From Octopus vulgaris (taxonomy: Eukaryota), in NCBI GenBank assembly GCA_951406725.2, contig OX597833.1:18352001-18416000 (forward strand): a stretch of DNA of 64,000 nt, read 5' to 3'. Position 1 is the stretch's first letter. Each line of letters starts with the position of its first letter. Below are positions 56,091-56,139 of the stretch, in pieces. Under the pieces are notes generated by a model. The model ran no database searches. It saw only the letters and a program-made list of their open reading frames with translations, and was not told the DNA's origin. Both the position numbers and the translations under genes were made by a program.

Positions 56091-56139
56091 ATTTTCCTAT
56101 TGAAAAGGTTGCAAGACGCAACGAAAATTTTAGGAAAAT
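56091..56139 (+). ncRNA. Variant-core minimal hammerhead at the centre of an inverted repeat (55992-56226)
   Basis: attttccta-TTGAAAA-G-gttgc-aagac-gcaac-GAAA-AT-TT-taggaaaat; same motif at 8001-8038 (-). Confidence 0.6.

Follow-up and report, generated by a model that had tools for sequence, protein, structure and literature searches.

The window, a 64-kb stretch of Octopus vulgaris DNA, carries a large cadherin gene and two copies of a small ribozyme-like motif. The cadherin gene occupies 6177-38499 on the forward strand and shows 94% identity to a cadherin-23-like gene model of Octopus bimaculoides. Its mapped exons end at 30909, followed by a weak match at 31842-32063. A likely transmembrane exon was noted near 38400-38499, beyond the end of the O. 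bimaculoides model, which may be incomplete. Inspection of the sequence placed a minimal type I hammerhead motif at 56097-56133 on the forward strand (copy 1, locus 1) and another at 8002-8038 on the reverse strand (copy 2, locus 2). Locus 2 lies between the cadherin exons 6177-6341 and 8729-9055. Both copies belong to one repeat family, with 90% identity over 160 nt, and are therefore counted as a single event.

Other mobile or repetitive sequences are also present in the window. A 1051-codon frame at 60239-63394 on the reverse strand contains endonuclease/exonuclease/phosphatase and reverse transcriptase domains, and is apparently an intact LINE that is unrelated to the flagged repeat. Three further candidates were read by eye: a frame at 2065-2718 on the forward strand that resembles the C-terminal part of a PIF1-type helicase and is presumably Helitron-like, broken frames at 34478-36220 on the forward strand that resemble the reverse transcriptase and restriction-like endonuclease end of a non-LTR retrotransposon, and a frame at 32912-33298 on the reverse strand that resembles the N-terminal helix-turn-helix part of a mariner transposase. 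A TA/TG microsatellite of approximately 2.7 kb spans about 48400-51100. Short SINE-like repeats are numerous, and one of them begins at about 56272, directly behind locus 1.

Anatomy of the two loci

Both loci are inverted pairs, in which an inverted, 5'-truncated copy of the repeat adjoins the 5' end of the sense copy, and further opposite-strand joints of the repeat were found on public contigs. At locus 1, the inverted arm (55993-56099, reverse strand) contains neither the hammerhead nor a tail. On its inner side, the arm stops at the position corresponding to the predicted cut, where a 3-nt CTA microhomology (56097-56099) coincides with the bases of stem I. The sense arm continues downstream of the motif at 56131-56254 on the forward strand, and consists of the stem I 3' strand, an AT-rich stretch, an AC-rich end, and a tail of about 25 nt (56230-56254). 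The common family end was mapped to about 56229-56231 from loose contig ends at 7902/7904. At locus 2, the sense arm (7879-8048, reverse strand) is antisense to the host cadherin intron and comprises the 5' flank (8048-8039), the motif (8038-8002), an ATG (7929-7927), and a tail that runs to about 7879. The inverted arm of locus 2 (8553-8650, forward strand) is, like that of locus 1, a piece of the same family without the motif. All four family pieces in the window are shorter than 200 nt. The ATG is found in three of the arms and is replaced by ACG in the locus 1 sense arm.

The tail is one-sided. Sense arms run approximately 25 nt past the common end, compared with 0 nt in the locus 1 inverted arm and about 8 nt in that of locus 2. 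Over 69 gap-free sites, seven differences separate the two arms of locus 1 and a single one separates its left arm from copy 2, which suggests that two different parents served as templates for the locus 1 arms. Of the six opposite-strand joints listed within the repeat, one has an end at most 2 nt from the predicted cut, so that no enrichment at this site is seen in a listing that stops 34 joints short. A 7-bp helix is predicted between the 5' flank (8042-8048) and the bases around the ATG (7923-7929, reverse strand), with pair probabilities of 0.8-0.97, and its 5' flank strand is common to the family, as contig depth extends to 8048.

The centre of locus 2 is occupied by a second repeat at 8083-8553. 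It is a two-armed insertion with a unit of approximately 353 nt, delimited by steps in contig depth and closed by loose contig ends at 8083 and 8324. A TTTTAG/G at the site had raised the possibility that splicing removed the hammerhead from the inverted arm of locus 2, an explanation that was dropped because the centre is this second repeat. The nested arms, 8210-8324 and 8439-8553, are identical at 115 of 115 nt, and on the unit the forward arm begins, with a 3-nt overlap, where the reverse arm ends. The flanking arms of locus 2 agree at 66 of 69 nt (Fisher p 0.05 against the nested arms). These figures fit a younger insertion of the nested repeat into an older palindrome, and joint insertion of both repeats by template switching is possible. 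A low-depth linker between the two repeats (8049-8082) resembles in part the family 5' flank with a short deletion, and in part the AC-rich 3' end.

The nested repeat contains a hammerhead-like motif of its own at 8343-8387 on the forward strand, sense in the host cadherin intron. Read by eye, it has a CCGAUGA core (U4C) at 8349, a 6-bp stem I, a 4-bp stem II, a palindromic 8-nt stem III (ACUCGAGU), and a GUC triplet. Its minimum-energy fold keeps stem I but neither stem II nor stem III, and the motif has no Rfam match. The nested repeat may be described as retrozyme-like.

Layout of the motif and its letters across the family

The motif can be read in the layout of Cervera and De la Pena (2014; PMC4209133). 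In copy 1, the stem I 5' strand (CUA, 56097-56099), shared by both arms, is followed by the core U3 U4 G5 A6 A7 A8 A9 and one unpaired base (56100-56107; U3 at 56100 and A8 at 56105). Stem II (56108-56122) forms 5 bp, starting with G10.1-C11.1, between 56108-56112 and 56118-56122 around a 5-nt loop, with pair probabilities of 1.0. G12, A13, A14, and A15.1 occupy 56123-56126, and A15.2 (56127), U16.2 (56128), U16.1 (56129), and U17 (56130) complete a palindromic AAUU stem III without a loop. The cut is predicted from this layout between 56130 and 56131. In copy 2, on the reverse strand, U3 is at 8035 and the predicted cut at 8005/8004. Over the 38 nt compared (8001-8038 in copy 2), the copies differ solely in the unpaired base after A9, which is G at 56107 in copy 1, an A/G difference against position 8028 of copy 2. 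A position-by-position check of the letters thus bears out the sequence, the coordinates on both strands, and the near identity of the two copies given in the first-pass annotation.

The strict C3/G8 consensus is not matched by the motif, which has a Watson-Crick 3-8 pair (U3-A8), U4 G5 A6, A9, G12-A15.1, and U16.1 H17. The published consensus of minimal hammerheads in Penelope-like elements (PLEs) includes an extra base after A9, G10.1-C11.1, a palindromic 15.2-16.2, a short stem I, and AU-rich flanks (PMC4209133). Here, one unpaired base stands between A9 and 10.1, G10.1-C11.1 opens a stem II of at least 4 bp, and a palindromic 15.2-16.2 (AAUU) is found in both copies. The first-pass annotation had described a doubly covaried core, with changes at both 3-8 and 15.2-16.2. 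A variant core that fits the minimal type I layout is indeed present, but the description is overstated: in the published examples 15.2-16.2 occurs as C-G, G-C, U-A, or A-U (PMC4209133), and is therefore not part of the core; it belongs to stem III and varies freely as a palindrome in known minimal hammerheads.

Stem I differs between the copies. In copy 2 it has 3 bp, with a pair probability of approximately 0.33 in context. In copy 1 it reaches 9-13 bp inside 56091-56139, because the inverted copy at 55993-56099 supplies the 5' strand. The native stem I of the family is 3 bp, and the long stem at 56091-56139 derives from the inverted repeat copy.

Conventional searches overlook this motif, as had been anticipated for CTGANGA patterns. 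A canonical CTGANGA scan of the window gave no match, and Rfam gave no hammerhead match at gathering score for the whole window, none among 23 matches at locus 1 up to E 10, and no match of any kind at locus 2. Rfam also reports microRNA matches at locus 1, which fall far under gathering scores and stem from the long inverted repeat. Matches to bacterial promoters and terminators carry no weight in an animal repeat.

The letters of the family were surveyed in public contigs aligned to stretches of locus 2. The stretch 7860-8330 recruited 22190, 15795, 13461, and 8970 contigs from four organisms (runs X1, X4, X5, and X7; organisms A-D), and a 69-nt stretch around the motif recruited 6158 (X1), 2184 (X7), 580 (X13), and 76 (X18). 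None of the runs that contain the stretch is recorded as RNA; X13 and X18 may be. The variant table of these contigs under-reports, since neither the A/G difference at 8028 nor a change at 8001, which reaches 13% in the wider stretch, appears in it. In the motif stretch, only two substitutions are listed at 1% or more, at 8017 (6.4% of X1 depth) and 8018 (15%), which are the two halves of one CpG. Changes to C3, G8, C15.2, G16.2, or C17 are not listed on the motif-stretch contigs, in a table known to under-report. The 8017 change disrupts a stem II pair, and a change of its partner is not listed. Compensatory stem changes are likewise not listed on the 6158 X1 contigs, although the family is very uniform and the same under-reporting applies.

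Among the changes listed elsewhere in the repeat, majority differences occur at 7920 (90%) and 7941 (93%), and the most frequent types are C-to-T and G-to-A. As judged from loose contig ends, most copies stop at 7902-7904, within the AC-rich stretch. A one-base insertion variant is found in a near-palindrome just 5' of the core (8038-8047), which, by energy prediction, could also pair between two molecules.

U3-A8, A15.2-U16.2, and U17 are therefore the family norm in a very abundant octopus repeat. The first-pass annotation had named decay from canonical CTGANGA as the finding that would overturn its reading, and the contigs, which number in the thousands and come from four organisms, have no listed reversion to C3, G8, C15.2, or G16.2. 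Its suggestion of covariation fares less well, as none is seen within the family, where the changes listed are of CpG type only and one is uncompensated in stem II. Since the variant table under-reports, a minor canonical (C3-G8) subfamily is possible.

Identity and activity of the repeat

The sequence is quite probably a minimal type I hammerhead whose variant letters are the family norm, carried by what is likely a PLE terminal repeat (pLTR), with cleavage predicted to be no more than weak and to need a dimer or the aid of a protein. Directly shown are the layout, the letters shared by the family, the inverted pairs with their one-sided tail, and a published precedent for each variant letter. 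An inverted 5'-truncated copy with an optional one-sided tail is the described anatomy of PLEs (Craig et al. 2021; PMC8557442), and published tails measure 30-40 bp. A pair of 3' ends lying close together in AC-rich sequence, seen as the loose ends at 7902/7904 with shared sequence continuing to 7879, matches the tail mechanism of the Anolis element (PMC11167929). PLEs also have a tandem pLTR-ORF-pLTR arrangement with two hammerheads; the contigs that cross this repeat are short. A search of the PLE consensus supplement of that 2021 paper, by the terms used, did not return the repeat.

A possible course of transposition can be outlined. Within a tandem transcript of the element, a pair of motifs would exchange strands: stem III would arise from the AAUU palindromes, each 3-bp stem I would pair one copy with the other, and the cut would follow U17. 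The element's protein would serve as chaperone, as has been shown in Anolis, where the hammerhead cleaves only with protein (Frangieh et al. 2024; PMC11167929). Reverse transcription would then start in the AC-rich stretch, 75-125 nt downstream; the Anolis element starts at two sites in an AC-rich stem-loop, and cuts and extends both DNA strands (PMC11167929). Two RNA templates, one for each cut DNA strand, would yield inverted pairs.

Energy predictions bear on how readily such a dimer would form. The strand-swapped dimer was calculated at -8.2 kcal/mol versus -14.6 for two monomers of copy 2, and at -31.4 versus -37.4 for copy 1, so that it is approximately 6 kcal/mol worse in both copies; these are nearest-neighbour values that ignore tertiary contacts and stand beside no full-length canonical comparison. 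The AAUU duplex is 3.9 kcal/mol weaker than ACGU by the same method. For the family, weak and dimer- or protein-dependent cutting is likely on these predictions, and the unfavourable dimer energies make protein help likely if the family hammerhead cuts. A UUU triplet is a poor cleavage site. The literature searched gave no measured cleavage rates for U3-A8 or for UUU triplets. The first-pass annotation had called activity uncertain, which is supported here. The parts consulted of PMC6155905, PMC6962438, and PMC8490949 added nothing specific.

The two copies in the window are themselves likely to be inert, and are predicted not to cut. In copy 1, stems I and II form the tip of a hairpin some 100 bp long, with pair probabilities of 0.95-1.0, and the inverted arm would close stem I within the molecule and block the strand swap. 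Copy 2 would be inert because it is antisense in a cadherin intron with no partner nearby. Its predicted folding is only mildly better than that of shuffled sequences (z -1.68; 15 of 200 shuffles as good).

The same identity would also hold if the hammerhead were dead or nearly so, a reading that differs from the preferred one on activity only and that we consider possible, though short of probable. Here, three weakening letters would have been fixed in the master copy of a PLE-type repeat that does not need cutting for transposition. The dimer and stem III energies are unfavourable, and no compensatory change is listed in the family. Minimal hammerheads have been reported to cut poorly even as dimers (PMC4209133), and in the Anolis element ribozyme mutants insert normally in vitro and no RNA-seq ends were seen at the cut site (PMC11167929). 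Against this, the rules for 3-8, 10.1-11.1, and the palindromic stem III are all obeyed, which drift alone would not keep for long. Natural U3-A8 covariation has been described in several examples, and earlier work reported U3-A8 ribozymes to be active in vitro (Perreault et al. 2011; PMC3088659). U17 is a frequent letter in such hammerheads, being present in 24 of the 56 rows of Fig. S3 of PMC4209133 by a hand count on machine-read text.

Another reading, which appears rather doubtful, is that of a SINE-like or retrozyme-like element, non-coding and non-autonomous, which depends on the enzyme of a PLE. No link to an open reading frame was found: in the 64-kb window, no reverse transcriptase or GIY-YIG gene adjoins the repeat, and the four pieces are all short. 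The frame of 37-47 aa behind the ATG drew one candidate and no match at E 10 or better, which is a weak test. A candidate assignment of the ATG frame to P0121 (E 2.3e-4) was rejected, as this is a 51-residue tandem repeat without reverse transcriptase or endonuclease families. Most motifs of this kind have been reported as single dispersed elements (PMC4209133), and retrozymes have been reported to be related to pLTRs (bioRxiv 10.64898/2026.07.22.740005). However, 5' truncation by itself yields short copies, and, as in the Anolis element, the common 3' end is preceded by an ATG. Canonical retrozyme hammerheads have a loop in stem III, which the octopus motif lacks. A tandem monomer of the flagged family was found neither in the window nor among the joints listed; a single low-depth contig goes back on itself.

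More elaborate than the preferred reading, and improbable in our view, is a scheme in which U3-A8, the all-A/U stem III, and the UUU site together tune the hammerhead down and make cutting dependent on binding of the element protein. The cut would then act as a switch that frees the 7-bp helix between the 5' flank and the AUG region and supplies a new RNA 5' end, where reverse transcription would run off; complementarity between stem I bases would then join the two cDNAs, as at 56097-56099. Such a protein-gated switch, if true, would give the PLE hammerhead an in vivo role and explain a part of the inverted insertions.

A chance look-alike, a coincidental match between a relaxed pattern and an A-rich repeat that forms a small hairpin, is very unlikely. 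The relaxed descriptor (paired 3-8, stem II of at least 4 bp, palindromic stem III, stem I of at least 3 bp) matches exactly two places in the window, and both are the known copies. Block-wise dinucleotide shuffles (n=100) gave 0.03 matches per window, with one match in each of 3 shuffles. The AT-rich context, the 3-bp stem I, the mild folding score of copy 2, and these shuffled matches would suit coincidence. The core word alone also recurs outside octopus, at 1 viral and at least 119 metagenome loci, none of which aligned beyond the motif among the matches listed; of the 120 microbial and viral matches listed, a single one has both a stem II of at least 4 bp and a stem I of at least 3 bp. 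Two core-word matches in prokaryote genomes both have no stem I, and a 37-nt piece of the arm found nothing in viral contigs. On the other side, features that the descriptor does not demand fit as well, namely the extra base after A9, G10.1-C11.1, and the UUGAAAA-A of Schistosoma mansoni 4. The surrounding repeat has inverted arms and a tail of PLE type, and the motif occupies the position expected within it. That both copies are decayed members of a canonical CUGANGA family is scarcely credible: the predominance of C-to-T and G-to-A among the listed changes and the under-reporting of the variant table would allow for it, but the copies are 10% apart elsewhere and yet agree at all core positions, and majority changes are visible at 7920 and 7941 while the listing for the motif stretch, which has no hidden entries, gives none in the core.

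Comparison with known systems

Each variant letter of the octopus motif has already been published, and a reading of it as a surprising variant is not supported. Cervera and De la Pena (PMC4209133) describe the U3-A8 variant and report approximately 1,300 matches of a U3-A8 descriptor in Schistosoma. In their Fig. S3, counted by hand as above, U3-A8 occurs in 2 of 56 rows, one of which (S. mansoni 4) has UUGAAAA-A and U17, and A15.2-U16.2 with a UUU triplet occurs in 1 of 56 (Crassostrea gigas, PLE-linked). The combination of U3-A8 with A15.2-U16.2 is absent from these 56 rows and from the literature searched; Lunse, Weinberg and Breaker (2017), who treat variant PLE hammerheads, may print it. 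The repeat thus adds one more PLE-type minimal hammerhead family, and scans limited to CUGANGA, together with Rfam, undercount such motifs in cephalopods. Protein gating of the weak variant, or a clustering of inverted junctions at the cut site, would give the family more significance, since either would bear on the in vivo role of the PLE hammerhead.

Among the closest known systems is the minimal hammerhead of Cercyon PLE family 4 of S. mansoni (PMC4209133). It shares the UUGAAAA core, U3-A8, the extra base, G10.1-C11.1, the 3-bp stem I, the loopless palindromic stem III, and U17, and inverted neighbours have been described for it. It differs in having C-G at 15.2-16.2, a GUU triplet, and a stem II of 6 bp with a 9-nt loop, whereas the octopus motif has A-U, UUU, and 5 bp with a 5-nt loop. 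A reverse transcriptase-endonuclease gene is linked to the Schistosoma family, and none was found with the octopus repeat. The PLE of C. gigas, another mollusc, complements this comparison (PMC4209133, Fig. S3 and Table S1), as it has the same A15.2-U16.2, UUU triplet, 3-bp stem I, 5-bp stem II, and 5-nt loop, but a canonical C3-G8 core.

Poseidon PAc of Anolis carolinensis resembles the octopus repeat in the placement of a hammerhead near the start codon, in an AC-rich start region, and in an optional tail between two start sites. PAc has a C3-G8 core and its open reading frame starts at stem II, whereas the candidate ATG in octopus lies approximately 75 nt downstream of the predicted cut. 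Its cleavage has been measured and is protein-assisted, and its hammerhead is dispensable for insertion in vitro (PMC11167929), whereas cleavage of the octopus motif is a prediction. The hammerheads of Perreault et al. (2011) show the same 3-8 covariation, described in passages that do not deal with loopless-stem-III motifs of animal retroelements. Metazoan non-LTR retrozymes (PMC7229834; Li et al. 2026, bioRxiv) carry a type I hammerhead in an animal repeat, as is the case here. They consist, according to these sources, of tandem monomers of 170-400 nt with a canonical motif, in contrast to the flagged family, which has a minimal loopless motif and for which no tandem unit was found. The size of retrozymes does fit the nested 353-nt repeat at 8083-8553.
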